This document shows, piece by piece, positions 13,537 to 37,024 of a DNA stretch of 40,400 nt. Positions within the stretch are counted from its first letter, which is position 1, and each line of letters opens with the position of its first letter. The DNA comes from Minisyncoccota bacterium. GTDB lineage: Bacteria; Patescibacteriota; Minisyncoccia; Phycocordibacterales; UBA918. The notes below the pieces were generated by a model. That model was not told the origin of the DNA and did not search any database. It saw only the letters and a program-made list of their open reading frames with translations. The translations under genes and the position numbers were made by a program. The stretch lies in NCBI GenBank assembly GCA_018062385.1, contig JAGOSI010000002.1, positions 1 to 40,400 of the forward strand. Direction: 5' to 3'.

Positions 13537-13571
13537 AATACAATTATATCTCACTTGTAGATATTTATAAT

Positions 13572-13602
13572 AAAACCACAACCTTAAAGTGGTTGTGGTT
13601 TT
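13572..13602 (-). terminator. Rho-independent terminator after the GH18 gene
   Basis: aaaaccacaacc-loop-ggttgtggtttt, a 12-bp stem with a U-run on the minus strand. It lies between the GH18 stop (13621) and the umuC start. Confidence 0.65.
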
Positions 13603-14883: not shown

Positions 14884-15312
14884 CTAAAACACCCTCGCAC
14901 TACCAATTACAGTGCCCCAAATGAAACAATCATCATTATCTGTCAATACTATCGGCTCATAACCTTCTTTTTCAGAAAGTAAAAAAGACCCTTTGGTACC
15001 GGTACTTAATCTCTTTACCACCATCTCACCAAAAACCGCAGCCACCACAATACTTCCTGACACCGGTGTAACCGAGCGATCTACCACCAAAATATCTCCA
15101 GAAAATATCTTTGCTCCTTCCATTGAATCACCAGCCACCTTAACAAAAAAGGTCGCGCTAGGATTATCTACCAAAAGATCGTTAATATTCAAATAACTGT
15201 CAATAGAATCATCCCCAGGGATAGAAAATCCAGCAGCCGGACGTGACAAATAAAGAGGAAGATCTTCACTCAATGATTCTTTTACTGAGAATATTTTTAT
15301 AATTTTTGTCAT
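14884..15312 (-). CDS. umuD: S24 LexA/UmuD-like self-cleaving peptidase
   Basis: RPAAGFSIPGDD..ATFFVKVAGDSMEGAKIFSGDILVVDRSV..GSIVVAAVFGEMVVKRL matches UmuD (AGF cleavage region, Ser in GDSM, Lys in VKRL). ATG 15312 is preferred over TTG 15333, which overlaps the upstream gene. Confidence 0.8.
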   Translation of the reverse strand: MTKIIKIFSVKESLSEDLPLYLSRPAAGFSIPGDDSIDSYLNINDLLVDNPSATFFVKVAGDSMEGAKIFSGDILVVDRSVTPVSGSIVVAAVFGEMVVKRLSTGTKGSFLLSEKEGYEPIVLTDNDDCFIWGTVIGSARVF

Positions 15313-15319
15313 CTTGAGC

Positions 15320-17658: not shown

Positions 17659-18558
17659 TTAGTCTATGAGCCTAATTTTTAAACGTTGAATTGGAGCAAT
17701 ATCAGCACACAAACTTGACCCTACTTTCAAACCTCCTGATCCGTCGTTAATATAAAAATAAGACAAGCGTTCTTCAATCATTTTCCTTTGTTCTCTTAAC
17801 TCATTGCTATTATAGTTGAACTCATACAGTCGAGGAAATACACCGCAAGCATGAAAGTAAGGCGGATTTACAGTCAAGACTTGCCCAATCATCCGAACCG
17901 ATCTTCCAGATTCTAAACTAGATCGCTCTTCCTCGCGTAAATCAGTCAGATTAATACGCCACTCAACCCCCTGCACATCGAGAAAAATCAAACCGTAAGG
18001 AAAAAAGTCTTCATGTTTAACAAAATTACCTACCAATCTCCCATTTTCAGGACTTTGCCATAGACGTTCCTCCATTTTTTCTTGTGACTCATAACCAGAG
18101 ACTGCACCACCAAGCCACTTATCAAAATTAAAACCAACTCCAATCATATGTAAAATCGCTCCACCCGCAAAACTCAAAATCAAACTACTACCTAAAACCT
18201 GCCACAAAGGATAACGGTAACCTCTCTTAGTATGACGTACGTTATAAACCGCAAATATAATCATGACCGTCAAAACCATAAACCACAAAAATGGCAATGC
18301 GTCCTCTACAAAAGTAAACAAATTATCGTGGGTCAATTCATAAAAGGCATACTGTTGATAGGAGACAACAAACAATGTCACAGCGATAGCTAAAGCGCCA
18401 ATAAAAGTACCTAAGAACCACAAACCCCAAGCCGAATAATCTGCCCAAACAAACCAAGACCGAGACGTGGGCGACATATTTTCGCTTTCCAGGCGATTAA
18501 GTACCGTTTGTTTCAGTTCTTTCTCTTCATTTTTCTTATCGTGCTCCATATTTTTCAT
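17659..18558 (-). CDS. Multi-pass membrane protein, candidate anti-sigma partner
   Basis: Start overlaps the sigma-factor stop in ATGA (18555-18558). About four TM segments plus a soluble C-terminal domain. No classical HxxxCxxC zinc anti-sigma motif, so the role is inferred from coupling only. Confidence 0.45.
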   Translation of the reverse strand: MKNMEHDKKNEEKELKQTVLNRLESENMSPTSRSWFVWADYSAWGLWFLGTFIGALAIAVTLFVVSYQQYAFYELTHDNLFTFVEDALPFLWFMVLTVMIIFAVYNVRHTKRGYRYPLWQVLGSSLILSFAGGAILHMIGVGFNFDKWLGGAVSGYESQEKMEERLWQSPENGRLVGNFVKHEDFFPYGLIFLDVQGVEWRINLTDLREEERSSLESGRSVRMIGQVLTVNPPYFHACGVFPRLYEFNYNSNELREQRKMIEERLSYFYINDGSGGLKVGSSLCADIAPIQRLKIRLID

Positions 18559-19166
18559 ATACGTAAAGAATCCTGATTTAATTCATTATAAAGTTGTTTC
18601 TTTCCGCGATGAATCAAAGTCCCGACCGAACCAATTGGAATCTTCAACACATCGGAAATTTCATCATATTCTAAATGTTCAAAATACCGCAAAGTTAAAA
18701 TTTGTCGATATTTTTCATCAAGTTTTGACAAAGCTTTATTAAGTTCTTCAGCATTCACATTTTGATCAAACGCCACATCAGGCGTTTCTTCCTTTGATCT
18801 AATCAAATTCAAAATTTCGGAACTGTCAGCTACCAAATGACCTTCAGGACGCACATTATGTTTCCGGTACCAACTAATGGCCTCATTGTGAGCAATACGA
18901 TAAACCCAGGCCGAAAAAGACATTTGCTTATCAAAACTGTTAAGATTTTTGTAAGCTTTAATAAAAATTTCCTGAAGCACATCCAGTTGATCTTCTTTAT
19001 TTTTTATCCCTAAACGCTCTATATATCGCCCAAGTTTCGCTTCGTAACGTTCAACAATAAAACCGAAAGAACTTCGCTCACGCAAAGTCATACCAACAAT
19101 CTCTTCATCTGATATATGTGGAACCGGATTTTTATCCATAATTGAATCCTTTGTATATGGTGACAT
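18555..19166 (-). CDS. ECF-type sigma-70 family RNA polymerase sigma factor
   Basis: Region 2 (LQEIFIKAYKNLNSFDKQMSFSAWVYRIAHNEAISWYRK) and region 4 (YRQILTLRYFEHLEYDEISDVLKIPIGSVGTLIHRGKKQL). Confidence 0.85.
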   Translation of the reverse strand: MSPYTKDSIMDKNPVPHISDEEIVGMTLRERSSFGFIVERYEAKLGRYIERLGIKNKEDQLDVLQEIFIKAYKNLNSFDKQMSFSAWVYRIAHNEAISWYRKHNVRPEGHLVADSSEILNLIRSKEETPDVAFDQNVNAEELNKALSKLDEKYRQILTLRYFEHLEYDEISDVLKIPIGSVGTLIHRGKKQLYNELNQDSLRI

Positions 19167-24099: not shown

Positions 24100-26922
24100 A
24101 TGGCAACAACGGTTGCTTTCGGTAGTAATCTAGTGGTTGATGAAGGAGGTGGAAACGTCTATCTTGTCGTTAATCGTACAGGAGATTTGACTGGTACTAC
24201 TTTAGTGGTGGTCGATGAAGATTGGTCAAGAAGTTCAGCAGAGACTGACGATGTTATCTTTAACCCGTATGTAGCTGGGGCGAGTATAGTTTACCTACCT
24301 GACACACGTCAAGTATTGTTGAAGTTTAATCCAGGAGTAAAAACTCTAAAGATTCCATACAGTATCAGTAATGATATTGTGAGTGAATTGTCGGAGAGAT
24401 TGTATTTCTCGTTGTCTTATATTACTCCAGTTATAATCGGAGATGATGATGCGAATATCAAAATCAACGCGAGTGATCCAGTCTTAAGTATTCATGGATT
24501 GTGGGTAGATGAAGGCCAGACTACAAATTCATATATTGAACTTAGTCATGCGGTTAATTTTGCAGTGACGGTGAAAGTCTCAACCTACTTCGGTACCTAC
24601 AAACAAGCAAATTACTTAGGTGAGGGTAAAGACTATAAAGGTTTGGTAGATCAATTGGTAACCATACCAGCTGGTCAAACCAAGGCTTATGTACCATTTC
24701 TCACTTATCAAAATGATGATCCAAATGACTGGAAGTATGAGTCAACGGAAATCAGGATTGAAGCAACTTCTATTCCAAACGGAGTATTGGCTGGACAAAT
24801 AAGTGATGTGGTGACTATCATAGATGTGGCAACACCGCCTCCACCACCCACTCTACCAATTCTCACCCTCTACGATGGTGGTTTAGCATTTGAAAATGAG
24901 TCTACTCACTCTTATGCCGAGCTTAGTGATCCAGTAGACCATGATGTTACCTTTAAGGTTAGTACGTATTTCGGTACGTATCAACAAGCTAATTATCTTG
25001 GTGAAGCTGGTGACTATGATGGTTTGATAGATAAATTATTTACCATTCAAGCAGGTCAGACAAGGGTGGATATTCCTGTACAAATAAATCAAAACCCTGA
25101 TCCAGAGGATTGGGAATATGAAGCGTTTGAACTGCGTATCGAAGCCCCAACTGTATTTGGTGCAACACTAGGTGTGGGCAGTGTCATCATTAATATCAAA
25201 GATGTATCAACTTGGGTAGAGCCGCCACCACCAACTGTGACACCACTAACAGCAACAATGTTGGAAAGTCACAAACAAGCTTTTCTCAATCTCGAATCTG
25301 AGGTGGGGACGAGTTCGGCAGTAGCAATTATTGCTGGCAATAAGGAATTATCTAATGTTGGTAAAACTTTAGATGTTTTCGGTCTATTATCAAGTGGTGT
25401 CAAAAACGCCATCACTTGGTTTGCTGGTAGTTCAGCTTATGCAAATCAGGAAGAATTACCGCTATTTACTCTAACTCAAAAGCAAATCAATATTGGTTTG
25501 CGTTTGCAGTCTAGGGTAGATTCTGATCAAGTGGCTACCGATCCAATTGACTGGACTACAGAGGAAGTAAATGACACTGATGGTTTAGGGTTGAGAGTTG
25601 GTGATTATGTTGATGGTAGGGTAGTTATTGCTCAGCCTTTGATTTCACTTTCTTATGCTGATCATGATTGGTATGTATCACAAGGTATGAGTGATGGAAC
25701 TGGAGATATGATTAGTCATTTTACTAAGAATATTATTAATCATCTTGGGGAAAAATCTGTTGGTATTGCTGAGGTGGCTATCGATTATTCTTTGAGAGAT
25801 AAATGGTTAGCAGAATCAGGGACAGAGACATATTTCTATGCTCAAGCTCCAGGAAAAATTATTTCAATTGCAGATAATACGACCGGAGAGGGCCCAGGAA
25901 GTTTTGGTAACTCTATTACTATCCTGTTGGATAAACCAGCTAAGATAAATGGTGGGGATTATCAAGTGTATGTTACTTACGCTCATGCTAAAGCTGGATC
26001 CATTATTTCTACAACGGGTCCAGATTCAGTAGGTGATCATGTTGATGTTGGTACACCACTTGGTATTGTGGGAAATAGTGGTTTTGCTATTGGGAAGCAT
26101 ATACATGCGACCTATGCAACTGGCTACTATGAACCAGATGGATATAAAATTGCTAGTAATGTTGGTAATATATCAAAATCTGATCCTCTTGATTCACCTC
26201 GAGAAGGTGGTGTTTCCATATCACCTGTATACATCATCGGCTTCAATCCAAGCCAAAATGGTTTTCCATCTGGTCCAAATCCAAATGTAGAACCATCGCA
26301 ACTTGGATATAAACCTTTCGGTGCCAGTGGTAATTTTATAGTTCCAGATAATGTAATTATGGGAACTGATGGTAAAGATTACTTTTCTGGTACTGATAGT
26401 GATACTGTCTATTACGGTGGTGACCATTATGATGATCAGATTGATTATGTCGGTATTGGGTCATGGCGAAGCAATTTTGCTGTTACTCAAAACCCCGATA
26501 GCTCAATCAATCTCGACAGTGCCAAATTCGGTTTTGACATCCTAAAAGACGTCGAAGGGGTTTGGTTTGAAGGAGAATGGAAATGGTACACCAAAGCTGA
26601 TCTCCTAAAACCTTTAAATACCAATGTTGTCTTAGGGAAAGAAACCGGTGATGTTCTCTATGGTTCTTCAGACATAGATATGTTTGCTGGTGGAGCTGGT
26701 AATGATCATTTTGTCGGCAGTATTGGCAATGATGTATACAACGGTGGTGATGGTGATGACACGGTAGAATATTATGGCGCCTATGCTTCTCGTGATAATT
26801 TTGTCTTCACACAAAATCCCAATGGCACCATTACAGCCAAGAGTGATTATTTTGGCACTGAAACCTATGTCAGTATTCAAGGTGTATGGTTTGATGGTAG
26901 TCAAGAGTGGCTTTCTTTGTAG
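24100..26922 (+). CDS. Large multidomain protein: three Calx-beta-like domains, M23/LytM-like peptidase domain, two RTX-like Ca-binding modules
   Basis: Strong RBS aaggagg at 24088-24094. Calx-beta-like repeats at about aa 1-123, 126-243 and 252-369, separated by PPPPPT/PPPPT linkers. M23-like block YAHAKAG..VGDHVDVGTPLGIVGNSGFAIGKHIHATY. RTX-like repeats GTDGKDYFSGTDSDTVYYGGD and FAGGAGNDHFVGSIGNDVYNGGDGDD. No N-terminal signal peptide. Confidence 0.8.
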   Translation: MATTVAFGSNLVVDEGGGNVYLVVNRTGDLTGTTLVVVDEDWSRSSAETDDVIFNPYVAGASIVYLPDTRQVLLKFNPGVKTLKIPYSISNDIVSELSERLYFSLSYITPVIIGDDDANIKINASDPVLSIHGLWVDEGQTTNSYIELSHAVNFAVTVKVSTYFGTYKQANYLGEGKDYKGLVDQLVTIPAGQTKAYVPFLTYQNDDPNDWKYESTEIRIEATSIPNGVLAGQISDVVTIIDVATPPPPPTLPILTLYDGGLAFENESTHSYAELSDPVDHDVTFKVSTYFGTYQQANYLGEAGDYDGLIDKLFTIQAGQTRVDIPVQINQNPDPEDWEYEAFELRIEAPTVFGATLGVGSVIINIKDVSTWVEPPPPTVTPLTATMLESHKQAFLNLESEVGTSSAVAIIAGNKELSNVGKTLDVFGLLSSGVKNAITWFAGSSAYANQEELPLFTLTQKQINIGLRLQSRVDSDQVATDPIDWTTEEVNDTDGLGLRVGDYVDGRVVIAQPLISLSYADHDWYVSQGMSDGTGDMISHFTKNIINHLGEKSVGIAEVAIDYSLRDKWLAESGTETYFYAQAPGKIISIADNTTGEGPGSFGNSITILLDKPAKINGGDYQVYVTYAHAKAGSIISTTGPDSVGDHVDVGTPLGIVGNSGFAIGKHIHATYATGYYEPDGYKIASNVGNISKSDPLDSPREGGVSISPVYIIGFNPSQNGFPSGPNPNVEPSQLGYKPFGASGNFIVPDNVIMGTDGKDYFSGTDSDTVYYGGDHYDDQIDYVGIGSWRSNFAVTQNPDSSINLDSAKFGFDILKDVEGVWFEGEWKWYTKADLLKPLNTNVVLGKETGDVLYGSSDIDMFAGGAGNDHFVGSIGNDVYNGGDGDDTVEYYGAYASRDNFVFTQNPNGTITAKSDYFGTETYVSIQGVWFDGSQEWLSL

Positions 26923-27140
26923 TTTAATTTAGTAGTCCTTTTTTGGTTCTTTAAAACCCTAAATCACAATGTGATTTAGGGTTTTCTTTTTACTTATTCT
27001 GTGGTACGGTACGTTTTATGAAAAAGACATTATTTATAACTATATTATTACTACTAACTGCCATAGTGGTCGGACTAGTGATTTTAAATGATAAAAAAGT
27101 ATCGGTTGAGCCAATAGTTAATAATGTTGCGACCACTACT
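26613..27140 (+). repeat. Copy A of ~530-bp mosaic direct repeat (resident cassette)
   Basis: Colinear with 28073-28603 at a constant offset of 1460 bp. 26613-26690 is 78/78 identical. The middle ~200 bp is diverged. 26895-27050 has about 7 mismatches in 156 bp. Confidence 0.9.
26953..26985 (+). terminator. Rho-independent terminator after the large gene
   Basis: aaaaccctaaatcac-aat-gtgatttagggtttt followed by ctttttt. Confidence 0.8.
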
Positions 27141-28055
27141 GAAGGTCTGTCTTTTAAAACTGGTCAAAAAATGATTTTTGTAGAGAATGTTGCGACCACT
27201 ACTGAAGGTCTGTCTTTTAAAACTGGTCAAAAAATGATTTTTGTAGATGATGAAAATGACTCAAGATGTCATGATAAAGATGGTTTTCCGGCTCTAGCTT
27301 TTTTACCAAAAACGGATAGTGTTTTTATTTTTTCTAATTTTGAGACCAGACTTAAAGAATATCCAATATTGAATATTGATGACACTACATTTTTGGTTTG
27401 TTCAAACAGTGAAACAAATAATTATAAAGTAGGGATACTTTACTCCAATAATTATTCAATAGTAGTTGTAAACAACGGTCATCTTACCGTGTTAGTAGAA
27501 GATATTATAGTTGAGTTAAATAAGCAGGGTTTTAATATTACAGAAAATCCAGATGATATTATTTTTAATCCAATGTATTTTTCTAGTAAAAATAATTCAA
27601 TAATTATTGGTAAAAATAGGTATGGAGTTGGTGGGTCATCTTCTAATCCGTTGTATTCTTATTCTTTGGAGACAGGCTCTTTCACGGAGCTTGCGATTTC
27701 AAAATATCATCATGATATGAATGGAATACTAACAAACCCGAACTCACCTTATTCGGTTGAGAGTGGAAAAATTTTAGTTTTACTTAACTTCGAAACTGAT
27801 ACATATAGAGTTATTTATGAGGCACTACCGAACGAAACTTTGACCTCAGAATGTGATATTGGTTGCAAGGTGGAAAATAAATGGTTGAGCGATGACGTTT
27901 TACTTTTCTATGTTTATTATTTTGATAAAAAAGAATATCAAAAAACGGGATATCGAGTAGAGCAATATAGTCTAAAACAGAAAAGAATATTAGATAAAAG
28001 TGAATGGATTGGTAGTGACGAAGACTATGTTAGTAAAGTCACTTTTTTTGATTAG
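27018..28055 (+). CDS. Signal-anchored extracytoplasmic protein, unknown function (cassette partner A)
   Basis: MKKTLFITILLLLTAIVVGLVIL signal anchor. By eye the body is more AT-rich than its neighbours. Contains a 21-aa perfect tandem duplication. No family recognised. Confidence 0.7.
   Translation: MKKTLFITILLLLTAIVVGLVILNDKKVSVEPIVNNVATTTEGLSFKTGQKMIFVENVATTTEGLSFKTGQKMIFVDDENDSRCHDKDGFPALAFLPKTDSVFIFSNFETRLKEYPILNIDDTTFLVCSNSETNNYKVGILYSNNYSIVVVNNGHLTVLVEDIIVELNKQGFNITENPDDIIFNPMYFSSKNNSIIIGKNRYGVGGSSSNPLYSYSLETGSFTELAISKYHHDMNGILTNPNSPYSVESGKILVLLNFETDTYRVIYEALPNETLTSECDIGCKVENKWLSDDVLLFYVYYFDKKEYQKTGYRVEQYSLKQKRILDKSEWIGSDEDYVSKVTFFD
27123..27248 (+). repeat. 63-bp tandem duplication (2 units, 62/63 identical), in frame
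   Basis: aatgttgcgaccactactgaaggtctgtcttttaaaactggtcaaaaaatgatttttgtaga[g/t] occurs twice (27123-27185 and 27186-27248). It encodes NVATTTEGLSFKTGQKMIFV(E/D) twice. Confidence 0.95.
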
Positions 28056-28058
28056 TAG

Positions 28059-28382
28059 TTTGTATGTAGAGATTTAAATACCAATGTTGTCTTAGGGAAA
28101 GAAACCGGTGATGTTCTCTATGGTTCTTCAGACATAGATATGTTTGCTGGCGGTGCTGGTAATGATCATTTTGTCGGTAGTATTGGCAATGACACCTATA
28201 ACGGTGGTGGTGACTATGATACGGTAGAATATTACGGTACTGAAGCCTCGCGTAATAATTTTACTTTTACCTATAATGCAAACGGTTCTATTATTGCAGA
28301 AAGTGATCAGTTCGGAACTGAAATATATGTTGGTATCGAAGGAGTTTGGTTTGGTGGTAGTCAAGAATGGCTTTCTTTGTAG
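28059..28382 (+). pseudogene. Promoterless, 5'-truncated orphan copy of the C-terminal RTX module of the 24100-26922 gene
   Basis: The frame opens directly after TAG 28056-28058. Homology starts at 28073, equivalent to L839 of the large protein. It encodes LNTNVVLGKETGDVLYGSSDIDMFAGGAGNDHFVGSIGNDTYNGGGDYDTVEYYG..GVWFGGSQEWLSL. There is no RBS or start other than the internal Met codon at 28140. Confidence 0.75.
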
Positions 28383-28603
28383 TTTAATTTAGTAGTTCTT
28401 TTTTGGTTCTTTAAAACCCTAAATCACAATGTGATTTAGGGTTTTCTTTTTGTTTGTTGTGTGGTACGGTACGTTTTATGAAAAAGACATTATTTATAAC
28501 TATATTACTATTACTTGCCATTATTGTGGTCGGTTTAGTAATTTGGAGTGACAAACAGTCAGTCATTGAACCTGTGGTTGATACTAATGTGGCTACTACA
28601 AGT
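28073..28603 (+). repeat. Copy B of ~530-bp mosaic direct repeat (orphan cassette)
   Basis: See copy A. Covers the orphan RTX module, the duplicated terminator and the first ~40 codons of the next gene. Confidence 0.9.
28413..28445 (+). terminator. Duplicate of the 26953-26985 terminator
   Basis: Identical hairpin sequence, 1460 bp downstream of copy A. Confidence 0.8.
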
Positions 28604-29164
28604 GCTATTTCTTCTGTTCCTTCACCCCTAACCCTCGCTTCACTCCAAGCTCTACCGGACTGGAACCCCACCATGGAAGTGGAAGGTATGAAAAGAGTGG
28701 AAGATGGTAATCCAGAGTTGGAGGTGAAGAATCTTCCAATTCATACGGAAGAAATAAGATCTAACAATTCTAGTTCTACTTTTGTGATTAAATATCTAGA
28801 ACCAGAGGTTAGTAATGAGGCGTGTGAGAAGTACGGTTTAACTGGAGAACCCTCAGGATATTTACTTAGATATAATTGTTTAATCGCTACACCCGATCTG
28901 TTCAATGAATTGATTGTTCTTTCGGGAAATACTGGTGAAGTGTTGCATAAGTATAGGTTGAAGGAGGGATATTCTTTGGCTGGTGATGTGTATCGAAGAG
29001 AAGGAGGGATTGTAACTATCAATAATTCCGTTGATAAGAAAATTATAGGTATATACATATATAAATGGGATTTTTCAAGTGATGTTCTTGAAAGAACTCC
29101 AGTTCTTCGTGACTATAGAATTAATTTAATTACCGGTGAAATAACCGAAATCAAACCACGTTAA
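28478..29164 (+). CDS. Signal-anchored extracytoplasmic protein, unknown function (cassette partner B)
   Basis: ATG 28478 equals 27018 + 1460. MKKTLFITILLLLAIIVVGLVIW is near-identical to partner A, and the two are unrelated after ..NVATT. The track start 28454 is a non-ATG extension. Confidence 0.7.
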   Translation: MKKTLFITILLLLAIIVVGLVIWSDKQSVIEPVVDTNVATTSAISSVPSPLTLASLQALPDWNPTMEVEGMKRVEDGNPELEVKNLPIHTEEIRSNNSSSTFVIKYLEPEVSNEACEKYGLTGEPSGYLLRYNCLIATPDLFNELIVLSGNTGEVLHKYRLKEGYSLAGDVYRREGGIVTINNSVDKKIIGIYIYKWDFSSDVLERTPVLRDYRINLITGEITEIKPR

Positions 29165-30097: not shown

Positions 30098-30137
30098 AAA
30101 AACCCCAACTTATTATTCAATAGTAAGTTGGGGTTTT
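30098..30137. terminator. Bidirectional terminator between convergent 29791-30090 and the sipW-like gene
   Basis: aaaaaccccaactta-loop-taagttggggtttt with T-runs on both strands. Confidence 0.75.
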
Positions 30138-30154: not shown

Positions 30155-31696
30155 CTATACTTCAGGCTCTGTCTCTGGCTGATTTTCATTATCACTTTCT
30201 TCTTCCGTAGTTGTCTCCAACTGATTTTCTGCCTCTTCAACCCCATCAGATTCTACCGATTCATTCTCCGTATCATCAACTTCATTACCAACTGGTTCGT
30301 CTATAGTTTCTGGTGCTGGTGCTGAATTATCTTCAATAACTGTTTCTACTTGCTCTACTGACTTACCAGAGTCTTCTAGCGGTTCTGATTTGGTCACAAG
30401 ATTAGTGAAGTCAGCCTGTGGAGCTGGGATTAAGGTCTTGTTGGCTACAAAGGTTAGCACTATAGTTTCTGCATCAACATAACCCTGATCTTCACTATTA
30501 CCAGCATAACCCTCCATGATTAGATTTATAGTACAAGTATCACCAGAATTATACTCACTCGCTTCAGCCAATGAAAAATTTAAAGACCAAGGATTCAAGA
30601 AAGCAACATTGTTCCCAGTCAAACTAGATAAAGACCCAGAAAATGATAATGGTGAATCCGCACTCACTAAAATATCATCACAAAGTGCAACAGTACCACT
30701 AGCAAAGTTCATTGACACAGCATAATTAAAATTATTTTCGCCATCATTGATATTTACTTCAACTCCATCTTCTCCACTAAATTCACCGTCAAGGATAGAA
30801 AAACTGGCTAGTTCTGGACTAATAGTAAAATCCAAAGCTTGGGCTTTTAGATGATTATCAACACTAGCTTCAACATCGGCTGGATAAGCTAAAGAATATC
30901 CGACTCCGGTCTGCCCCAATAAAGTAATTATCATCACAAAACCAGCTGTAGCCACCACAAATCTTGATTTAATATCATGATTAGCAGCAAACATTGGTGA
31001 TTTATTTTTTAGTTGCAAAGCCGGATTTTCCACTTTCTGCACCTTTGGCTTAATATCCATCATTCTCACTTGAGCAGTAACTAATGGCTTTTTCACCGCC
31101 ACGGTTGGCATATTTAAAGTAGCTAAATTTAATGGATTTGGTTGATACGGCGCAATTACCAAAGGCATAATCATTTCCTTAGTAATTTTCATTTTACGCA
31201 CTCGTCTCACCTCCCGCCCAATATTATCTAATTCATCAATAATAATTAGGAGTGCAGGCAAACCAATCAACAAAGCAAAACCAGCTGGTTGTCGAGCAAA
31301 ATCCAACACAAAACCAAGGTAAGGAACATCTACCATTACCTTACCCAAAATATCACGGACAGAAACCAAATTGGCATCACGCTCTTCGTTGGCGTCACCT
31401 TTGGTGACAAAATATTCTTTCCCCTCAGACATTTCGGTACCTATAATGCGATGAGTAGTTGGAACATCACTATCGCGACTAGAGAATGTAATCACGTCTC
31501 CAACTCCGTAAACAGGCGCCGCTTGCACTACCACCACCGCACCAGTCATAATGGCTGGTTCCATCGATCCAGACTTAACAATCTTCACTTCAAATTCACC
31601 AAGTCCCGGAACTGGTGGGGCAAAGAAAAGTACCACCAGTGCCGCCAGGATTAGAGCATAGAAACTATAGAGAATGAAATTGAATATTTTTTTCAT
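30155..31696 (-). CDS. sipW: SipW-type (archaeal/ER-type S26) signal peptidase I fused to a TasA-like module and an acidic tail
   Basis: Core peptidase motifs: KSGSMEPAIMTGAVVVV, GDVITF, TTHRIIG, VTKGDANEERD, then a second TM. From aa ~244 there is a second signal-peptide-like segment, KSRFVVATAGFVMIITLLGQTGVGYSLAYPADVEASVDNHLKAQALDF. A beta domain ends QGYVDAETIVLTFVA, followed by a Glu/Asp-rich tail. The start is 1 nt after the upstream stop. Confidence 0.75.
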   Translation of the reverse strand: MKKIFNFILYSFYALILAALVVLFFAPPVPGLGEFEVKIVKSGSMEPAIMTGAVVVVQAAPVYGVGDVITFSSRDSDVPTTHRIIGTEMSEGKEYFVTKGDANEERDANLVSVRDILGKVMVDVPYLGFVLDFARQPAGFALLIGLPALLIIIDELDNIGREVRRVRKMKITKEMIMPLVIAPYQPNPLNLATLNMPTVAVKKPLVTAQVRMMDIKPKVQKVENPALQLKNKSPMFAANHDIKSRFVVATAGFVMIITLLGQTGVGYSLAYPADVEASVDNHLKAQALDFTISPELASFSILDGEFSGEDGVEVNINDGENNFNYAVSMNFASGTVALCDDILVSADSPLSFSGSLSSLTGNNVAFLNPWSLNFSLAEASEYNSGDTCTINLIMEGYAGNSEDQGYVDAETIVLTFVANKTLIPAPQADFTNLVTKSEPLEDSGKSVEQVETVIEDNSAPAPETIDEPVGNEVDDTENESVESDGVEEAENQLETTTEEESDNENQPETEPEV

Positions 31697-31697
31697 A

Positions 31698-32735
31698 CTA
31701 GCTATTTCTACCAGTTACTCTACTAATAGTATTACGAACATTATCTCTCAGCCTTTCAGACAAAGTTCTGGTTTCAGACACTCGATAAAAACGATCACTT
31801 TCGATTTGACCTGAAGGCAAACCATCATCATCGGTATAGTCATCTTCATTATTTGAGTGTCCAGGATTGGAGTTATCGTTATGGTCATTATCATTACCGT
31901 GTCCATTATTCCCTTTTGGCTCACAGTTCTTTCCTTTTTTATCTTTACACTCTGGTTTTGGCTTTGGCGGTTTTACTTCCTTTTTACACTTAAATCCTTG
32001 ATTTGAATTGGCTTGTACTGCTCGTAGCACCACATCTACAGTCATTGAGTCTGTTTGCATCACATTTCCCAAACCAGACCCATCACAACTCACATTAGCG
32101 TTACTCAAATTAACCTGCAAATCTCCTGCACACCAAATAATTCCAACATAATTAGTAGAATTAACAGCACAGGAATTACCAGTGTTAGCATCGGCCACAG
32201 CATATGTGGTACTGCTTAAAAGGGTACTGGCTGTTTCGGTGGCACTGCCACCGAAGATCACTTTTTCATTTTTCTCAAACACATTATCGCCGTCATCACG
32301 CCAAGCGAAAAACTCAAGATTTTGTGATAATTCACCACTCGGTAAATTATCAACAATTGATTCTGGTTCGTTCATTCCGTTTTCAAAGTCCTGTAGATTG
32401 TTGAAATCAAGACAAATATAAGCTGGATTTTTCTTCACATGAAGACTTATATTATGTCGTCCCATATCTCCTGGTTTGATGTCGTCAAAATTAAAGAAAT
32501 GATCGACACCTGGCACTAAGTCTTTCAATTTCCAACTTAAAGCCGGTTGTGAAACTCCGTTGTAAACGGCTTTGCTATCAACTTTTAATTCCAAGCCACT
32601 TTGTCCTTGGCCATTTTTTGTAGCAAAGGTATAACCAGTTCCAGCTCCATTCGCCACCAAAACTACCAGCAGGAATCCTAGCACTGCTAAGACTAGCGTG
32701 ATCTTGATTCCTCTGTGGTAGAAAGTTTTTGGCAT
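31698..32735 (-). CDS. TasA/camelysin-like paralog 3 (divergent signal region, His/Asn/Asp-rich tail)
   Basis: Shares FFNFDDIKPGDMGRHNISLHV, NEPES, GELSQNLEFFAWRDDGDNVFE, YVGIIWCAGDL and QTDSMTVDVVL..FKC with the two upstream paralogs. The tail contains HGNDNDHNDNSNPGHSNNEDDY. Confidence 0.65.
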   Translation of the reverse strand: MPKTFYHRGIKITLVLAVLGFLLVVLVANGAGTGYTFATKNGQGQSGLELKVDSKAVYNGVSQPALSWKLKDLVPGVDHFFNFDDIKPGDMGRHNISLHVKKNPAYICLDFNNLQDFENGMNEPESIVDNLPSGELSQNLEFFAWRDDGDNVFEKNEKVIFGGSATETASTLLSSTTYAVADANTGNSCAVNSTNYVGIIWCAGDLQVNLSNANVSCDGSGLGNVMQTDSMTVDVVLRAVQANSNQGFKCKKEVKPPKPKPECKDKKGKNCEPKGNNGHGNDNDHNDNSNPGHSNNEDDYTDDDGLPSGQIESDRFYRVSETRTLSERLRDNVRNTISRVTGRNS

Positions 32736-32771
32736 GAATGAAATTTTAAATTAACCGCCTTTTTCTAATCC

Positions 32772-34160
32772 TTAATCCTGCAATACTCCACAATTTAGGG
32801 CGCTCACGGCATCAAGATCATAACCATCGGCTGTTGCCTCAAACGGTGCTCGAGGAGACACATCGGTAATTCGCACATACTTTGCCCAAGCTAGACCTGA
32901 AGAAGCTAAATCTGCCTCAGTATCCCTGTCGGCACTTGCGGTTACCAAGAACCAATTAGTTCCATTCTGACTAACTTCAATTTTTATCTTTTCAGTTGGA
33001 TAACTAGTTCCTCCTGTCACCTCCCAAGCTCGCAAATCGTTTCCTGGACCATCTACGATATAACCACTTCCAAATTCTAGGACAATAGAGCCACCTTCAA
33101 CAATCGTGGTACTAGAATTGAAACCTAAACTAAAGAAACTGTTGGCTACCACCGGACTATCAAATGGTGTTCCCATACTCTGTGGTGCACCAAGAACAAA
33201 ACTAGGATTTGTTCGGTCAGCTGTTACTGGAGTACCATTCTTTCGCACTCCCTGACTAGAAGTCACAACACTGCTAGCGTAGGTTTGAACTGGCAAAGTA
33301 CAAGCGGTGAAAACTGGCTCAGAATTACACTTAAAGTCAGCATTATGACGAGCTTGAGTTGCAATAAATTGTACATCTGCGGTCAGTGAGTCGGTTTGGC
33401 TTTCATTTCCAAGCAGTGAACCGTTACAAGTCACACCACCGTCTTCTGGAGTACCGATTTCCTGATCATTGTTGTTATCTAAGTTGGGAGCGCGGTTCAC
33501 ACTAGAATTATCTTGAGTTAATGGATCTGTACCCATTTCGCCAAAACACCAAGCCTTACCAATATACATAGTTTCACTACCTGCGAGTGGTCCACCCTCA
33601 TTATTTTCGTTCCAAATATTAGTTTCGGAATCAGCGAGCGTGATTGTATGAGCTTCATTCAAAGTCAGAGCCCCGATGGCTCCAGGACCAGAGATAACCG
33701 TCTCATCATCCTCTAGCACATTATCGCCATCATCTGCCCACCAAATGAAGTTTACTAATGAAGCTAATTCACCCTCATTTTCTCCAGCGGTGTTATCTAC
33801 TTCTGCTTCCGGCTCAGTTTGGCCGTTTTCATTATTGGAGGTTAAGGTTACATCAGCACAGACAAAGGAATCATTGTTGTCGACATGAATCGAAATAGTA
33901 TCTTCACCATAATCACTTGGCTTCAAATCACCAAAATCAAAAAACTTTTCAATAGTCAGATCTTTTTGCTCCCAGGTCGTAGAAGCATTTAAAACACCAT
34001 TATAATAACTCTCATTATCAATCTTTAGATCAATCGCTCCCGCAGTAAAGACGTTGGCGACTGAAGTCTCACTATCGGAGAAAAAGGCTTTGGTTACTCC
34101 AAAAGCGACCGACCCACCAGCCACTACAATCAAAGCTACGCTTAGGAAAATTCGTTGCAT
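32772..34160 (-). CDS. TasA/camelysin-like paralog 2 with extra C-terminal beta-sandwich domain
   Basis: SipW-type signal peptide plus mature N-terminus: ..GSVAFGVTKAFFSDSETSVANVFTAGAIDLKIDN. Also FFDFGDLKPSDYGEDTISIHV and QTDSLTADVQFIATQA. ATG 34160 is preferred over TTG 34205. Confidence 0.75.
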   Translation of the reverse strand: MQRIFLSVALIVVAGGSVAFGVTKAFFSDSETSVANVFTAGAIDLKIDNESYYNGVLNASTTWEQKDLTIEKFFDFGDLKPSDYGEDTISIHVDNNDSFVCADVTLTSNNENGQTEPEAEVDNTAGENEGELASLVNFIWWADDGDNVLEDDETVISGPGAIGALTLNEAHTITLADSETNIWNENNEGGPLAGSETMYIGKAWCFGEMGTDPLTQDNSSVNRAPNLDNNNDQEIGTPEDGGVTCNGSLLGNESQTDSLTADVQFIATQARHNADFKCNSEPVFTACTLPVQTYASSVVTSSQGVRKNGTPVTADRTNPSFVLGAPQSMGTPFDSPVVANSFFSLGFNSSTTIVEGGSIVLEFGSGYIVDGPGNDLRAWEVTGGTSYPTEKIKIEVSQNGTNWFLVTASADRDTEADLASSGLAWAKYVRITDVSPRAPFEATADGYDLDAVSALNCGVLQD

Positions 34161-34286
34161 ATAATATTTATTAAAATCAGAACTTGATAAACTTTTTAAT
34201 AACAATCACGCTGATCCCCTTCAGCCCGCTAAATCCCAGAAACTGAGATTTAGAACGGCTAAATAAGATTATCTTATACGGATTTA

Positions 34287-35480
34287 TTAAGTAGTGTAGG
34301 TATTGGTTGCTTCACAAGTCACAGCTTCGCCAAGAGCGATGGTAACTTGACTACCAACTTCAGGTGTAGCATTTCCAGTACATGACCAAGTCAACACTTC
34401 CCCACCAGGTCCAGCTGGTAATTCACCTAGAGTGTAGACTCCTGGCAACACTACAGCATTGGTAACAGAAAGAGCACCTTCAATTCCAGAAATGGTTGAT
34501 GAACCTGTTGCTGTTAGTGTAAACGCTGAATCTGCAATAACTTCTGCAGGTGTAACTGTCTTAGCTAGTGTAAGAGTAGTAGTTGCTACTGGTTCTGGTT
34601 CTTCAACCACGCCAGGACAACGGAAGTTTTCGTTGTTTCGAGCTTGTTCGATGTAGAAGCTGATATCAGCTTTAAGTGAGTCAGTTTGACTTAGGTTTGT
34701 AACTGATTCTCCACTACATGAAAGAGTTGTACCAGTAACAGTTAGATCACCGTAGCACCAGTAAACTCCTACATATGTCGTTTCAAGAGCTTGAATAGCA
34801 CCAGTTTGTGGTGTGAAAAGTGGATAGGTTCCAGCAATTCCTACACCATCTTCATCATTGGCCAAAACTTGCTCTCCAGTTTCAAAGATATTATCGCCAT
34901 CATCTTCCCAAATAAAGAAGCTTAGTTCTTGGTCTAGTTCACCGGTAGTTGTACCGTTTACATCAACCACAGATTCTGGTTCGGTTTGAGTATTGTCAGC
35001 TGACTCTACATTACTGATAGTAGCGCACATGTAAGCGTCATTATTGACTACATGTAGAGATAGTGTGTTTTCACCATTATCTCCCGGCTTTAGGTCACCA
35101 TAATCGAAGAAAGTATGAGTTGGGCCAAGATCGGTCAGAGCCCAAGTACCTTCACAAGCAGTACCAGCTTGTGGCACATTGGCTGGGTTGGCGGTGTTGT
35201 AAACAATAATTGCAGCTGCGGCATCGCCCGTTAGTTCATTAACTGAACTAGAAGCGTTCCAAGTTACTACTGTTTCTGGTAGCCATTGACTAACTTGTCC
35301 ATCGTCAAAACAAACTAATCCATTAATATGGGCCACGCTATCAACCTTCAGATCAATCGCTCCTGCCGTAAACACGTTAGCTGTTGAAGTCTCCGTGTCA
35401 CTGAAGAAAGCGCCAGTTCCGCCGGCCACCACAGCCCCAGCAAAAACTATCATCCCTACCCCTTTAATAATTCCTTTCAT
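34287..35480 (-). CDS. TasA/camelysin-like paralog 1 (first gene of operon) with C-terminal prealbumin/Cna-B-like domain
   Basis: MKGIIKGVGMIVFAGAVVAGGTGAFFSDTETSTANVFTAGAIDLKVDS parallels B. subtilis TasA (..GGGTWAAFNDIKSKDATFASGTLDL). Also DLKPGD and QTDSLKADISFYIEQA (compare TasA QGNSIKLQFSFEATQ). Confidence 0.8.
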   Translation of the reverse strand: MKGIIKGVGMIVFAGAVVAGGTGAFFSDTETSTANVFTAGAIDLKVDSVAHINGLVCFDDGQVSQWLPETVVTWNASSSVNELTGDAAAAIIVYNTANPANVPQAGTACEGTWALTDLGPTHTFFDYGDLKPGDNGENTLSLHVVNNDAYMCATISNVESADNTQTEPESVVDVNGTTTGELDQELSFFIWEDDGDNIFETGEQVLANDEDGVGIAGTYPLFTPQTGAIQALETTYVGVYWCYGDLTVTGTTLSCSGESVTNLSQTDSLKADISFYIEQARNNENFRCPGVVEEPEPVATTTLTLAKTVTPAEVIADSAFTLTATGSSTISGIEGALSVTNAVVLPGVYTLGELPAGPGGEVLTWSCTGNATPEVGSQVTIALGEAVTCEATNTYTT

Positions 35481-35809: not shown

Positions 35810-35838
35810 AAAAAGCCCGACAGCGAAGCTGTCGGGCT
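35810..35838 (-). terminator. Rho-independent terminator after the desaturase gene
   Basis: Minus strand: agcccgacagc-ttc-gctgtcgggct followed by ttttt. Confidence 0.8.
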
Positions 35839-35854
35839 AAAATTAAACAAAAAA

Positions 35855-36934
35855 CTAAGTGATCTCATTACCATAATGCAAACCTCGAAACCACTTGGCA
35901 AATTGCTGGAGCTCTAAATAACCATATTGATCAACTTTCATCACCCAATGGTATAACTCAAAAGCAGTGGCTTCAGTCGGAAATTCCAACCAATATTGAA
36001 ACTGCTCAATCAAAGATCCAATTCCTCCATCATCAGCAAATGATTGATTCGATACCAAACAATTATTAAACTTCATTCCAATGTAATAAGAATGCTGTTG
36101 AAACAATCTCAACCAGTCATCTTTACTCAAATGTTCTTTATCAGAAGAGAATTTTGGTAAGTAGGCCACTTTTTTAGGATCAAATTTAGCCAGACCCAAG
36201 GATTGTAAAATTTTGATATCTAACCAACCAATATCAAATTCCCACCATTTTAGAGCAAGCCTGGGTGAAGTTTGATAGGCGTGATGATTATTATGCAACT
36301 CTTCTCCACCAATCAAAATCCCAAAAGGTAACAGATTTTGCGAAGCGTCTGGTGTTTCGGCATTACGATAACTTAGAAATTTGTAATGCCCCAAACCATT
36401 AATGACTCCAGCCGCCATGATTGGTATCCAAAACGCTTGAATACCAAAAATAATTAAGCCGGGCCAACCAAAAATAATTGTTTGCACCAAACCCAATAGA
36501 GTCAAACCTAGCCACGGATGTTTTGAATAAAGATTGTGTTCAATCCAATCATCAGGCAAACCTTTGGCCAAATTACCTTGGACATATACTAATATCTCTT
36601 TATCCTTCAAAGCCTGCTTATACAATCTAGCACCATGAGTTAACAGTTTTATAATACCAAGCTGTTGAGGGCTATGCGGATCATCTACCGTCTCACATTT
36701 ATCGTGATGCTTGCGATGAACAGCTACCCATTCGTGAGTTTTCATACCGGTAGTTAGCCAGAGCCAAAACCGGAAGAAATGCTGTACTGAAGGATGAAAT
36801 TCCACAGAACCATGAGTTTTACTGCGATGAAGATATAGAGTTACTGAAACAATAGTGATATGAGTTAGAAATAATGTAATTAAGACATACATCCACCAAG
36901 GTAATTGCCCCAAGAGACCATATAATAAATCCAT
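35855..36934 (-). CDS. Membrane fatty-acid (acyl-CoA/acyl-lipid delta-9-type) desaturase with ~100-aa C-terminal extension
   Basis: Three His boxes: HRSKTH, HRKHHDKCETVDDPHSP and HNNHHAYQ. TM segments. The second ATG (36934) has GGAGG upstream and is preferred over 36946. Confidence 0.85.
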   Translation of the reverse strand: MDLLYGLLGQLPWWMYVLITLFLTHITIVSVTLYLHRSKTHGSVEFHPSVQHFFRFWLWLTTGMKTHEWVAVHRKHHDKCETVDDPHSPQQLGIIKLLTHGARLYKQALKDKEILVYVQGNLAKGLPDDWIEHNLYSKHPWLGLTLLGLVQTIIFGWPGLIIFGIQAFWIPIMAAGVINGLGHYKFLSYRNAETPDASQNLLPFGILIGGEELHNNHHAYQTSPRLALKWWEFDIGWLDIKILQSLGLAKFDPKKVAYLPKFSSDKEHLSKDDWLRLFQQHSYYIGMKFNNCLVSNQSFADDGGIGSLIEQFQYWLEFPTEATAFELYHWVMKVDQYGYLELQQFAKWFRGLHYGNEIT

Positions 36935-37024
36935 TTTAACCTCCATTTTAAATTATGAACGAACAAAAAATAATGAACAATCATTACTGTCTGCATGGTA
37001 CCACATTTTTAGGATGTAGATAGA

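Follow-up and report, generated by a model that had tools for sequence, protein, structure and literature searches.

Systems that resemble the locus studied here assemble extracellular fibres by donating a strand from one subunit to the next. TasA of Bacillus is a structural fibre protein with an experimentally defined donor strand (residues 28-38), and TapA has been proposed to supply the first strand of TasA fibres (PMC9674648). TapA is described as a chaperone-like initiator in which a V-set Ig domain lies between a disordered N-terminal strand and an acidic tail; its gene ends in a stop codon that overlaps the start codon of sipW (PMC10151520). In the archaeon Pyrobaculum calidifontis, the AbpA/AbpB bundling pili are built from a TasA-like jelly-roll subunit by donor-strand insertion, and the same study noted that PF12389 occurs in Patescibacteria (PMC9245690).

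Here, we describe a four-gene operon from a Patescibacterium, an ultrasmall bacterium, within a stretch of 40,400 nucleotides that we call the window. We lean towards reading this operon as the form that SipW-dependent secretion and assembly of the TasA/TapA type takes in Patescibacteria, with five modules carried by four genes; it is probably the Bacillus biofilm-fibre system in a divergent form. The fifth module, which we call E, occupies the C-terminal half of gene 4. The features are as follows.

35814..35838, minus strand: terminator-like hairpin of the upstream fatty-acid desaturase gene (11-bp stem with 8 GC pairs, T-run)
34287..35480, minus strand: gene 1 (P1), 397 aa
35409..35480, minus strand: P1 residues 1-24, putative SipW-type signal peptide (hhalign against TasA GGGTWA↓AFNDIK)
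35349..35408, minus strand: P1 residues 25-44 (FFSDTETSTANVFTAGAIDL), candidate donor strand (conservation, AF2, TasA alignment)
34311..34580, minus strand: P1 residues 301-390, SpaA_2 prealbumin-like (CnaB-type) domain (Pfam PF19403, E 6.2e-12)
34214..34269, minus strand: stable RNA hairpin without a U-tract, in the gap between genes 1 and 2
32772..34160, minus strand: gene 2 (P2), 462 aa from ATG
31698..32735, minus strand: gene 3 (P3), 345 aa
30155..31696, minus strand: gene 4, 513 aa
31226..31696, minus strand: gene 4 residues 1-157, SipW/ER-type signal peptidase I (TM1, catalytic domain, TM2; TIGR02228)
30962..31225, minus strand: gene 4 residues 158-245, basic linker, predicted cytoplasmic (charge count)
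30887..30961, minus strand: gene 4 residues 246-270, third hydrophobic segment (hydropathy)
30824..30886, minus strand: gene 4 residues 271-291 (YPADVEASVDNHLKAQALDFT), TasA-like N-terminal strand of E (by-eye alignment, hhalign)
30362..30823, minus strand: gene 4 residues 292-445, predicted all-beta Ig-like domain of E (AF2)
30158..30361, minus strand: gene 4 residues 446-513, acidic tail (charge count, pLDDT)
30099..30137, plus strand: 18-bp inverted repeat just 3' of the gene 4 stop

ORF calling confirmed the original prediction of four genes on one strand (minus, 35480-30155), separated by 126, 36 and 1 nt. The operon is likely flanked on both sides by hairpin terminators: the hairpin of the desaturase gene (35855-36946) forms the 5' boundary, and the inverted repeat after gene 4, likely another terminator, would mark its 3' end. 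Between genes 1 and 2, a 146-nt stretch that spans the gap has an MFE of -32.9 kcal/mol (z = -2.5 against shuffles), and a function of its hairpin as attenuator or stabiliser is speculation. An alternative in-frame TTG start at 34205 is possible for gene 2.

Paralogous subunits and the link to TasA

Judged by sequence, genes 1-3 are paralogs. Pairwise BLASTP matches are far beyond chance (P1-P2 1e-50, P1-P3 3e-40, P2-P3 2e-41), and four core cysteines are invariant in all three proteins, which agrees with the three paralogs and conserved Cys originally proposed; the N-termini and the DLKPGD, GEL..FF.W.DDGDN, WC.G and QTDS blocks quoted with that proposal are also present.

The description of these paralogs as TasA/camelysin-like held in part. 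P1 passes both PF12389 (26.7 bits, cutoff 22.5) and the SipW-cognate signal model TIGR04088 (25 bits, cutoff 19), P2 falls just under the cutoff in both (19.2 and 17.9 bits, respectively), and P3 matches neither. These models cover only the N-terminus, with matches confined to residues 8-51 (signal peptide and first strand), and none of the three paralogs matched PF12389 once the N-terminal segment was removed. A search of PDB sequences with the family profile did not find TasA. Using hhalign, the paralog and TasA families aligned at E 3.4e-10 to 6.4e-10, and the global alignment was collinear, pairing F.DLKPGD with NLKPGD and NLSQTDSLKADISFYIEQ with QNKYQGNSIKLQFSFEATQ, so that the LKPGD and Q(T/G)(D/N)S...F.(F/Y).E..Q motifs occur in the same order as in TasA; restricted to the core, the alignment reached E 4.3e-4 with a probability of 34%. 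The TasA sequence used was checked against 8AUR, whose chain begins at A28.

Structural comparison also pointed to TasA. The AF2 model of P1 had a mean pLDDT of 86, and in a Foldseek search against 350,542 PDB chains the TasA fibre 8aur_A was the second-best match (E 2.7e-4, probability 1.00, 197 columns, TM 0.34 normalised to the target, rmsd 9 Å). We note that sequence evidence for TasA homology beyond the first 50 residues is weak, and that the modest Foldseek match and the weak collinear profile-profile alignment give moderate support to a TasA-like beta-sandwich fold of the core. Overall, the tie between the paralogs and TasA is genuine, though thin. Their core far exceeds TasA in size; it has a DDGDN loop and four cysteines that are conserved, and its large, Cys-rich, lineage-specific insertions are absent from TasA.

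The N-terminal segment carries the clearest similarity. Cleavage of P1 is predicted by homology after A24 (GGTGA↓FFSDTE), and the following residues 25-44 show the highest conservation anywhere in the family (mean 0.87, compared with 0.65 in the core). This segment is undocked in the AF2 monomer, with pLDDT below 50, and aligns to TasA 28-46, a range that contains the TasA donor strand. P1 is a TasA-like subunit in which the N-terminal strand is complete and the C-terminal domain is prealbumin-like, with the Mobiluncus adhesin 5u6f as that domain's top Foldseek match. The original prediction had placed this domain on an accessory gene and contrasted gene 1, as major subunit, with domain-carrying accessories, a split that is wrong because gene 1 itself carries the domain. 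P2, likewise a TasA-like subunit, also has a complete N-terminal strand; its C-terminal domain is beta-rich, ends DGYDLDAVSALNCG and matched F5/8 type C only below threshold (E 0.006).

P3 retains the TasA-like core but has no FSDxE donor segment. After the core come a linker rich in Lys and Pro, a stretch rich in His, Asn and Asp, and a C-terminal tail that is conserved in two related loci (L005 and L006) with orthologous g1-g4 gene order. The orthologous class sits directly upstream of sipW, and the donor-segment motif is absent in 51 out of 71 loci. By sequence, P3 therefore belongs to a conserved class that lost the donor-strand segment, a class that had been overlooked.

Gene 4, a signal peptidase fused to a fifth component

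The first half of gene 4 is a signal peptidase. Residues 3-157 match TIGR02228 at 103.5 bits (cutoff 51.85), and PDB matches include SEC11A/C at 1e-9. The predicted SipW motifs SGSMEP, THRI and GDAN were found at residues 42, 81 and 100, and the catalytic residues S44, H82, D101 and D107 are in place; the last three are invariant in alignment A3, and S44 is conserved in all sequences covering that position. These matches uphold the original proposal that a SipW-type peptidase shares its operon with three secreted paralogs. As a description of the whole gene, however, SipW-type peptidase fits only the N-terminal half: at twice the normal size for a peptidase gene, gene 4 exceeds a SipW by about 330 residues, and the additional component E had been missed. 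The two parts are joined by a linker with 17 K/R versus 6 D/E (residues 156-245), in which the motifs PLVIAPY, MDIKP and DI(K/R) are conserved in fused homologs, and the topology is consistent with the positive-inside rule.

E was compared across 82 loci, comprising the window and 81 related Patescibacteria loci. It is fused to sipW in 20 of the 82 (the window and 19 others), follows sipW as a separate gene in 40 of the 81 related loci, often with its start overlapping the sipW stop by 4 nt, and was undetected in 22 of the 82. Since the separate gene in those 40 loci begins with a SipW-type signal, we interpret residues 246-270 of gene 4 as an internal signal peptide of that type, with cleavage predicted after A270 (SLA↓YPADVEAS). 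Residues 271-291 align by eye, without gaps, to P1 residues 25-44, and the E-family consensus N-terminus SYFnDtE.S.gN.f.Ag.LDF is a canonical SipW-cognate motif. In hhalign, E matched the Patescibacteria paralog family (E 5e-12) and the TasA family (E 7.5e-9), both from the N-terminal strand region only. The motif of the window is degenerate (YPADVE versus YFSDTE).

The rest of E resembles TapA in layout. The AF2 model, built from only 7 sequences (mean pLDDT 59.6), shows a domain of about 11 strands at pLDDT 60-85, with PapD-type chaperones and chaperone-usher pilins as top Foldseek matches (E 2e-4 to 3e-3, TM about 0.33); given the low confidence of the model, these Ig/PapD-like matches are only a lead. 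The 68-residue tail contains 26 D/E and 0 K/R, falls below pLDDT 50 over the part that the AF2 model covers (to about residue 450) and is probably disordered. E thus has the architecture of TapA (strand, Ig-like domain, acidic tail) without sequence homology, as hhalign detected no similarity between the two (probability 3.9%). The translational tie to sipW takes different forms: tapA stop with sipW start in Bacillus, sipW stop with E start in split Patescibacteria loci, and a fusion in the window.

Proposed assembly and alternative readings

By analogy with TasA, P1 and P2 would be exported and cut by the SipW-type peptidase after A24 or the equivalent Ala, baring the conserved strand FFSD(T/S)ETS..NVFTAGAIDL. 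Each would then combine a Cys-rich, enlarged TasA-like beta-sandwich core with a C-terminal adhesin-like domain, and the strand of one subunit would slot into its neighbour's sheet, building up a fibre that bears binding domains. P3 could only accept a strand and so would sit at one chain end. In gene 4, the third TM helix would follow the two-helix peptidase and the basic cytoplasmic linker as an internal signal, and the peptidase may cut it in cis or in trans. This self-processing would release E, with its strand, complete Ig-like domain and acidic tail, as a TapA-style starter at a fibre end.

It is possible, if rather doubtful, that nothing polymerises and that an export and scaffold module shows variable C-terminal binding or enzymatic domains singly, on the cell surface or in the medium, with the N-terminal segment as a peptidase recognition element only. 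The C-terminal domains of P1-family homologs are very diverse and unrelated to one another, including enzymes (pectinesterase, vWA, DUF642; also SpaA_2), so that a general display scaffold fits them as well as a fibre does; each of the three paralogs in the window has additional C-terminal parts, and TasA similarity is concentrated in the signal region. However, core-only first-gene homologs (about 280-300 aa) are common, and no part of the mature protein is more conserved than the 20 residues past the predicted cleavage site, as is also the case in TasA, where these residues form the donor strand (PMC9674648). Additionally, the P3 class lost specifically this segment while keeping the core, and E, a conserved, non-homologous partner, bears the same strand. 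Peptidase recognition alone hardly explains either.

We consider it unlikely that E stays attached through the third TM helix as a permanent anchor, with the Ig-like domain acting as a membrane-bound chaperone, docking platform or cell-proximal fibre anchor rather than a free initiator. Retention of the fusion in the window and 19 other loci, the degenerate window motif and the PapD-type matches would suit a tethered E, as would the reported colocalisation of TapA with the membrane (PMC10151520). Yet in 40 loci E is encoded on its own and begins with an ordinary cleavable signal of the SipW type, and the fused homologs P0121 and P0123 retain the canonical SYFSDTE/SYFNDTE motif. ER-type signal peptidases are known to cleave internal signal sequences of viral polyproteins, which also argues for release.

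A sortase-assembled Gram-positive-type pilus, with P1 as an isopeptide-linked SpaA/RrgB-like pilin, is very improbable: the SpaA_2 domain and Foldseek matches to RrgB, Spy0128-type pilins and the Mobiluncus adhesin all stem from the single C-terminal prealbumin-like domain, the LPXTG sorting signal, C-terminal TM anchor and YPKN pilin motif are absent from all four proteins, and no sortase gene was found within the operon. Least probable of all is that the paralogs are camelysin-type (Peptidase_M73) secreted metalloproteases, as the PF12389 name Camelysin metallo-endopeptidase would imply, since no HExxH motif was found in any of the three, the PF12389 match is limited to signal and first strand, and TasA itself is structural (PMC9674648).

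Compared with B. subtilis tapA-sipW-tasA, the TasA/TapA-type system that we favour shares a dedicated ER-type signal peptidase I within the operon and, in its substrates, the SipW-cognate signal with an A↓(F/A)F.D.E...F.(A/S)G.(I/L)DL N-terminus. It differs in gene order (subunits, sipW, E), in having three specialised subunit classes instead of one, in its C-terminal adhesin-like domains and in one class without a donor segment, and the Bacillus equivalog models fail here (TasA 15 vs 450 bits, SipW 99 vs 190 bits). Several TasA-like paralogs also adjoin sipW in B. cereus sipW-tasA-calY and other CalY/TasA-family (PF12389) loci, although PF12389 recognises the Patescibacteria core protein only at its N-terminus. 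We know of no TapA-like partner in B. cereus. AbpA/AbpB likewise have a TapA-like partner, there with distal beta domains, and a relationship to TasA seen only with sensitive methods (PMC9245690), but the archaeal locus has a single pilin and neither a dedicated peptidase gene nor a Cys-rich core. The proposed logic of donor-and-acceptor subunits, an acceptor-only subunit (FimH-like, compare P3) and a donor-only component recalls chaperone-usher pili (Fim/Pap), which also supply the best structural matches of E, weak and from a low-confidence model; unlike these, the Patescibacteria system has no usher, periplasm or sequence relationship.

The operon module is conserved across Patescibacteria, with 2-4 core genes upstream of sipW in most of the 82 loci and a family of more than 1,000 clusters at 50% identity. 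NCBI names the P1 homologs 'CalY family' or 'TasA family' proteins; the Patescibacteria family was thus already annotated in databases but never studied, and the fibres that it would form may play a role in host attachment.

Operon organization and the signal peptidase

Four consecutive genes on the minus strand (35480-30155) encode three secreted TasA-like paralogs, P1, P2 and P3, and a SipW-type signal peptidase gene, P4. The four same-strand ORFs of the original prediction were confirmed with gaps of 126, 36 and 1 nt, and the unit is bracketed by a hairpin on one side and an inverted repeat on the other.

Features of the operon
35838-35814, minus strand: strong hairpin with T-run, after the upstream desaturase gene
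34287-35480, minus strand: P1, ORF of 397 amino acids (aa)
32772-34160, minus strand: P2, ORF of 462 aa counted from ATG, with an alternative in-frame TTG at 34205
31698-32735, minus strand: P3, ORF of 345 aa
30155-31696, minus strand: P4, ORF of 513 aa
30099-30137: 18-bp inverted repeat directly beyond the P4 stop codon

A further stable hairpin (34214-34269, minus strand) lies in the 126 nt that separate genes 1 and 2. It lacks a U-tract (146-nt stretch, MFE -32.9 kcal/mol, z -2.5) and could tune how much of the first subunit is made relative to the products of the downstream genes. Because the exact P1 protein occurs solely on contigs of 2-4 kb, we took locus context from relatives. In two related loci, L005 (operon genes of 401, 468, 345 and 524 aa) and L006 (282, 464, 473 and 475 aa), every gene was closest to its positional counterpart in the window, with order and orthology kept.

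In these syntenic loci, genes for a 168-aa protein, a 220-aa protein and BipA lie closely after the operon. In the window the same genes are separated from the operon by a plus-strand block (24100-29164), which therefore looks like an insertion; GC skew switches sign across it. The block encodes an RTX-repeat protein of 940 aa and a pair of secreted paralogs (27018 and 28454) that both start MKKTLFITILLLL, the one at 27018 containing the exact internal duplication NVATTTEGLSFKTGQKMIFV; it also contains a small RTX ORF (28140-28382). Elsewhere in the window, genes for a cohesin-domain protein and a dockerin-plus-Ig-domain protein (3305-4852 and 5392-7305, minus strand) flank an Hsp20 gene; the two proteins may be a cohesin-dockerin pair at the surface of this Patescibacterium. 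Genes for a UmuC-like polymerase (IMS, 12295-13581) and for an S24 peptidase resembling UmuD/LexA (14884-15333), both on the minus strand, flank a GH18 chitinase-like gene (13621-14844).

Other nearby genes with envelope or secreted functions
9668-10741, minus strand: protein with a WxL-interacting peptidoglycan-binding domain
15320-16366, minus strand: CAP-family protein
18555-19166, minus strand: ECF-type sigma factor

The first part of P4 is a signal peptidase of the SipW type, as originally predicted from the motifs SGSMEP, THRI and GDAN, which we located at residues 42, 81 and 100. Residues 3-157 matched TIGR02228 (archaeal/ER-type signal peptidase I) with 103.5 bits against a cutoff of 51.85, and the catalytic residues S44, H82, D101 and D107 were all present. 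H82, D101 and D107 were invariant in fused homologs, and S44 was conserved wherever the sequence covered it. The equivalog model for Bacillus SipW (NF046067) gave 99.2 bits, below its cutoff of 190. P4 is thus an enzyme of the SipW type but no ortholog of the Bacillus protein. Its sole sequence matches in the PDB were the human catalytic subunits SEC11A and SEC11C.

The secreted paralogs and their relation to TasA

Pairwise comparisons bore out the paralogy of P1, P2 and P3 (BLASTP E-values 1e-50, 3e-40 and 2e-41), and the sequence blocks on which it had been proposed were common to all three. The shared Cys-rich core (in P1, window 34605-35348, minus strand) contains four invariant cysteines and an invariant W.DDGDN loop, which suggest disulfides and a putative Ca2+ site. 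P1 has an additional Cys pair within its insertion.

Family models matched P1 at its N-terminus. P1 exceeded the gathering score of PF12389 (Peptidase_M73; 26.7 versus 22.5 bits) and the 19-bit cutoff of TIGR04088, the model of the SipW-cognate signal (25 bits). These matches were limited to the signal peptide and first strand (P1 residues 8-51), and PF12389 matched none of the three proteins once their N-termini were removed. P2 fell slightly short of both models (19.2 bits for PF12389 and 17.9 bits for TIGR04088), with the signal motif plainly visible, and P3 matched neither; by the TIGR04088 scores the SipW-cognate signal is present in P1, borderline in P2 and undetected in P3. The equivalog model for B. 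subtilis TasA (NF046066) has a cutoff of 450 bits, and the score of 15.1 bits did not indicate TasA orthology. Against PDB sequences, a phmmer search with P1 returned a chance match only, and an hmmsearch with a 120-sequence family profile returned no match.

More sensitive comparisons pointed to a distant relationship. We aligned 120 relatives of B. subtilis TasA, using a query sequence that agreed with 8AUR at every residue, and compared this family with the paralog family. Local hhalign aligned the N-terminus alone (E-value 3.4e-10), and the global alignment of the two families was collinear, pairing F.DLKPGD with NLKPGD and NLSQTDSLKADISFYIEQ with QNKYQGNSIKLQFSFEATQ. Cores alone aligned locally on the NLSQTDSLKADISFYIEQ/QNKYQGNSIKLQFSFEATQ motif, with an E-value of 4.3e-4 and a probability of 34%. 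The AF2 model of P1 (mean pLDDT 86, but under 50 for residues 1-39) had the TasA fibre structure 8aur_A as its second Foldseek match in the PDB (E-value 2.7e-4, probability 1.00, 197 columns, TM only 0.34, rmsd 9.1 Å); the top match was an adhesin, via the C-terminal domain. From this match and the collinear alignment we read the core as probably derived from the TasA fold, much enlarged and rich in Cys, an assignment we regard as moderately supported.

Conservation in P1 and P2 peaked in the 20 residues following the predicted cleavage site (0.87 versus 0.65 in the core), which correspond to P1 residues 25-44 and carry an FSDxE motif. These residues were undocked in the AF2 model of the P1 monomer, which, together with their conservation, is an indirect sign of possible assembly by donor-strand exchange. 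P3 belongs to a different class, encoded directly upstream of sipW, whose members were without the FSDxE segment at 51 of 71 loci. Past their hydrophobic segment, its members read G.TFAT..(I/L)(D/E)LKIDS. Aligned to TasA, they keep the equivalent of residues 38-47 (TFASGTLDLS) and have lost the equivalent of 28-38, the experimentally defined donor strand of TasA (PMC9674648). In the subclade of the window, a Gly/Gln-rich insert (KNGQGQSG) replaces the lost segment in P3. In a donor-strand polymer, a subunit that has an acceptor core and lacks a donor strand would be expected at one end.

The C-terminal domains differed among the paralogs. A prealbumin-like domain had been assigned to an accessory subunit, but we found it on P1 as SpaA_2 (residues 301-390). 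Many members of the P1 class consist of the core alone (about 280-300 aa), in line with the major-subunit role that had been proposed for gene 1, although P1 of the window itself carries SpaA_2. P2 ends in a beta-rich domain with discoidin-like (F5/8 type C) Pfam matches below threshold only. The isolated cores and component E, the C-terminal half of P4, had no match in Pfam.

The tail of P3 (window 31701-31976, minus strand) starts with a Lys/Pro-rich linker containing two Cys, continues with the motifs NPGHSN and DDDG.P.GQI, and ends in a basic C-terminal segment, FY.V.E..TLS..R. It had no Pfam match, and from NPGHSN onward it is conserved in the orthologs of L005 (10761-11798) and L006 (6577-7998).

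A TapA-like component fused to the peptidase

P4 exceeds the length of a SipW by about 330 residues, which was overlooked in the original prediction. A second TM helix (residues 138-156) is followed by a basic linker (17 K/R versus 6 D/E) and a third hydrophobic segment at about residues 246-265. The protein then reads SLA|YPADVEASVDNHLKAQALDF, which by eye matches TGA|FFSDTETSTANVFTAGAIDL of P1 without gaps. An all-beta domain (about 150 residues) comes next, and the chain closes with a tail that contains 26 D/E and 0 K/R. With E fused to sipW, the four window genes therefore hold five functional modules.

We scanned one genome per species with an alignment of the fused protein and recovered 288 relatives, of which 80 loci were kept, nearly all labelled Patescibacteria. 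The best was Parcubacteria OLB19 (50% identity). HMMs of core, peptidase and C-terminal domain were run against the ORFs of these loci, and the survey table comprised 82 loci (the window and 81 relatives). The module was stereotyped, with two to four core genes followed by sipW and an E-carrying protein.

State of E in the 82 surveyed loci
E fused to sipW: 20 loci (window and 19 others)
E as a separate next gene: 40 loci
E undetected or lost at a contig end: 22 loci

The same fused ORF in 19 other loci excludes an assembly or frameshift artefact. Where E is separate, it opens with its own TM segment and the canonical motif, and in many cases the sipW stop and the E start overlap by 4 nt.

Stand-alone E proteins often extend into domains of the Lamin Tail, LamG and surface Ig types and then long acidic or Pro-rich tails. 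The fused E of the window is without these domain extensions. Four loci (L070, L080, L081 and L087) place a Patescibacteria-type sipW module in MAGs labelled Methylomarinum/Gammaproteobacteria, which probably reflects mis-binning and not true distribution.

Stand-alone E proteins with Lamin Tail Domains, sometimes with LamG and surface Ig, downstream of sipW
L025, 7522-9162
L071, 7480-9297
L035, 7519-11358
L045, 7449-10373
L076, 4404-5567

The N-terminal consensus of the E family is SYFnDtE.S.gN.f.Ag.LDF. In hhalign comparisons E matched the Patescibacteria paralog family (E-value 5e-12) and the TasA family (7.5e-9) through this N-terminal region only, and the body of E matched neither the TasA cores nor the Patescibacteria paralog cores. 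An AF2 model of E built from only seven sequences was an all-beta sandwich (mean pLDDT 59.6, 60-85 inside the domain). Its Foldseek matches were nearly all PapD-type chaperones (SfaE, FimC, FaeE, Caf1M, SafB and CsuC) and chaperone-usher pilins, with E-values of 2e-4 to 3e-3 and TM of about 0.33; we take these as a weak lead that may point to an Ig-like fold, no more.

In Bacillus, SipW cleaves the signal of TapA, whose N-terminal strand is disordered and almost the same as the one in the subunit; the protein also has a complete Ig domain and a disordered, acidic tail, and its translation is coupled to that of sipW (Roske et al. 2023, PMC10151520). TapA initiates TasA fibres via N-terminal strand donation (PMC10151520; PMC9674648). 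E likewise begins with a SipW-type signal followed by a subunit-like strand, is coupled to sipW by fusion or adjacency, and has a clear acidic tail; judging from its low-confidence model, it may also have an Ig-like domain. Unlike this architecture, the sequence of E has no detectable relation to TapA: a 60-sequence E alignment compared with TapA (reference residues 44-190 verified against 6QAY) gave an hhalign probability of 3.9% and an E-value of 0.011, insufficient for homology. Since the architecture matches, we call E a putative TapA analogue that may be TapA-like in its working; membership of the TapA family is unsupported.

Possible assembly and distribution in Patescibacteria

ER-type signal peptidases are established to cut internal signal sequences in viral polyproteins. 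With cleavage sites assigned by alignment to A27|A28 of TasA, SipW would cut behind A24 in P1 and behind the equivalent Ala in P2, and would cleave itself after A270. E would then supply the first strand, P1 and P2 would add by strand insertion, displaying their C-terminal binding domains, and P3 would end the chain. We infer every one of these steps, from cleavage and initiation by E to strand insertion of P1 and P2 and termination by P3. The most far-reaching reading, which we consider rather unlikely to hold as a whole, is a polar, usher-free donor-strand fibre in which E, the initiator, is made as part of its own peptidase and released by self-cleavage at an internal signal peptide, P1 and P2 are shaft subunits that carry adhesin domains and P3 caps one end, and which serves host or surface attachment in many Parcubacteria-type Patescibacteria.

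The main alternative is a non-polymerising display scaffold whose conserved N-terminus is there for peptidase recognition only. The highly varied C-terminal domains among homologs favour such a scaffold, but the class without a donor strand and the presence of the strand on E, a non-homologous partner, argue against it. In a variant, E would be kept tethered to the membrane. A sortase pilus fails because the operon genes have no LPXTG, no YPKN pilin motif and no sortase, and a metalloprotease fails because the HExxH motif is missing.

The system is a variant of TasA/TapA/SipW that is widespread in Patescibacteria and already has family-level names in databases. A word-indexed search returned more than 590 relatives of P1 that, where named, came from Patescibacteria and carried the names CalY family, TasA family or SipW-dependent-type signal peptide-containing protein, with diverse C-terminal domains (SpaA_2, vWA, DUF642 and pectinesterase). 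An exhaustive search with the subunit profile found 1,023 clusters (50% identity) at E-value <=1e-30 and 2,253 at <=1e-10. The original reading of a TasA-like family was thus broadly right at the family level, but its assignment of domains to genes was wrong and it missed the fused E and the donor-less class. PF12389 in Patescibacteria was already noted by Wang et al. 2022 (PMC9245690). Our literature search on SipW, TasA and camelysin in Patescibacteria, CPR and Parcubacteria found one sentence on PF12389 distribution and no study of the system, and the Southlakia Tn-seq paper did not mention such genes. Nothing yet shows behaviour beyond the known TasA/TapA/SipW paradigm.

Little has been established on how Patescibacteria other than the cultivated Saccharibacteria attach to hosts or surfaces; among the papers retrieved, studies deal only with type IV pili and a few adhesins (PMC10633639, PMC11623550). 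The module described here is very common in this poorly understood phylum. If confirmed, it would extend donor-strand TasA-type fibres to a third major lineage, beside Bacillota and archaea, and the natural fusion would back the proposed functional association of SipW with TapA. Should polymerisation not occur, the module would still represent a widespread SipW-dependent display system.
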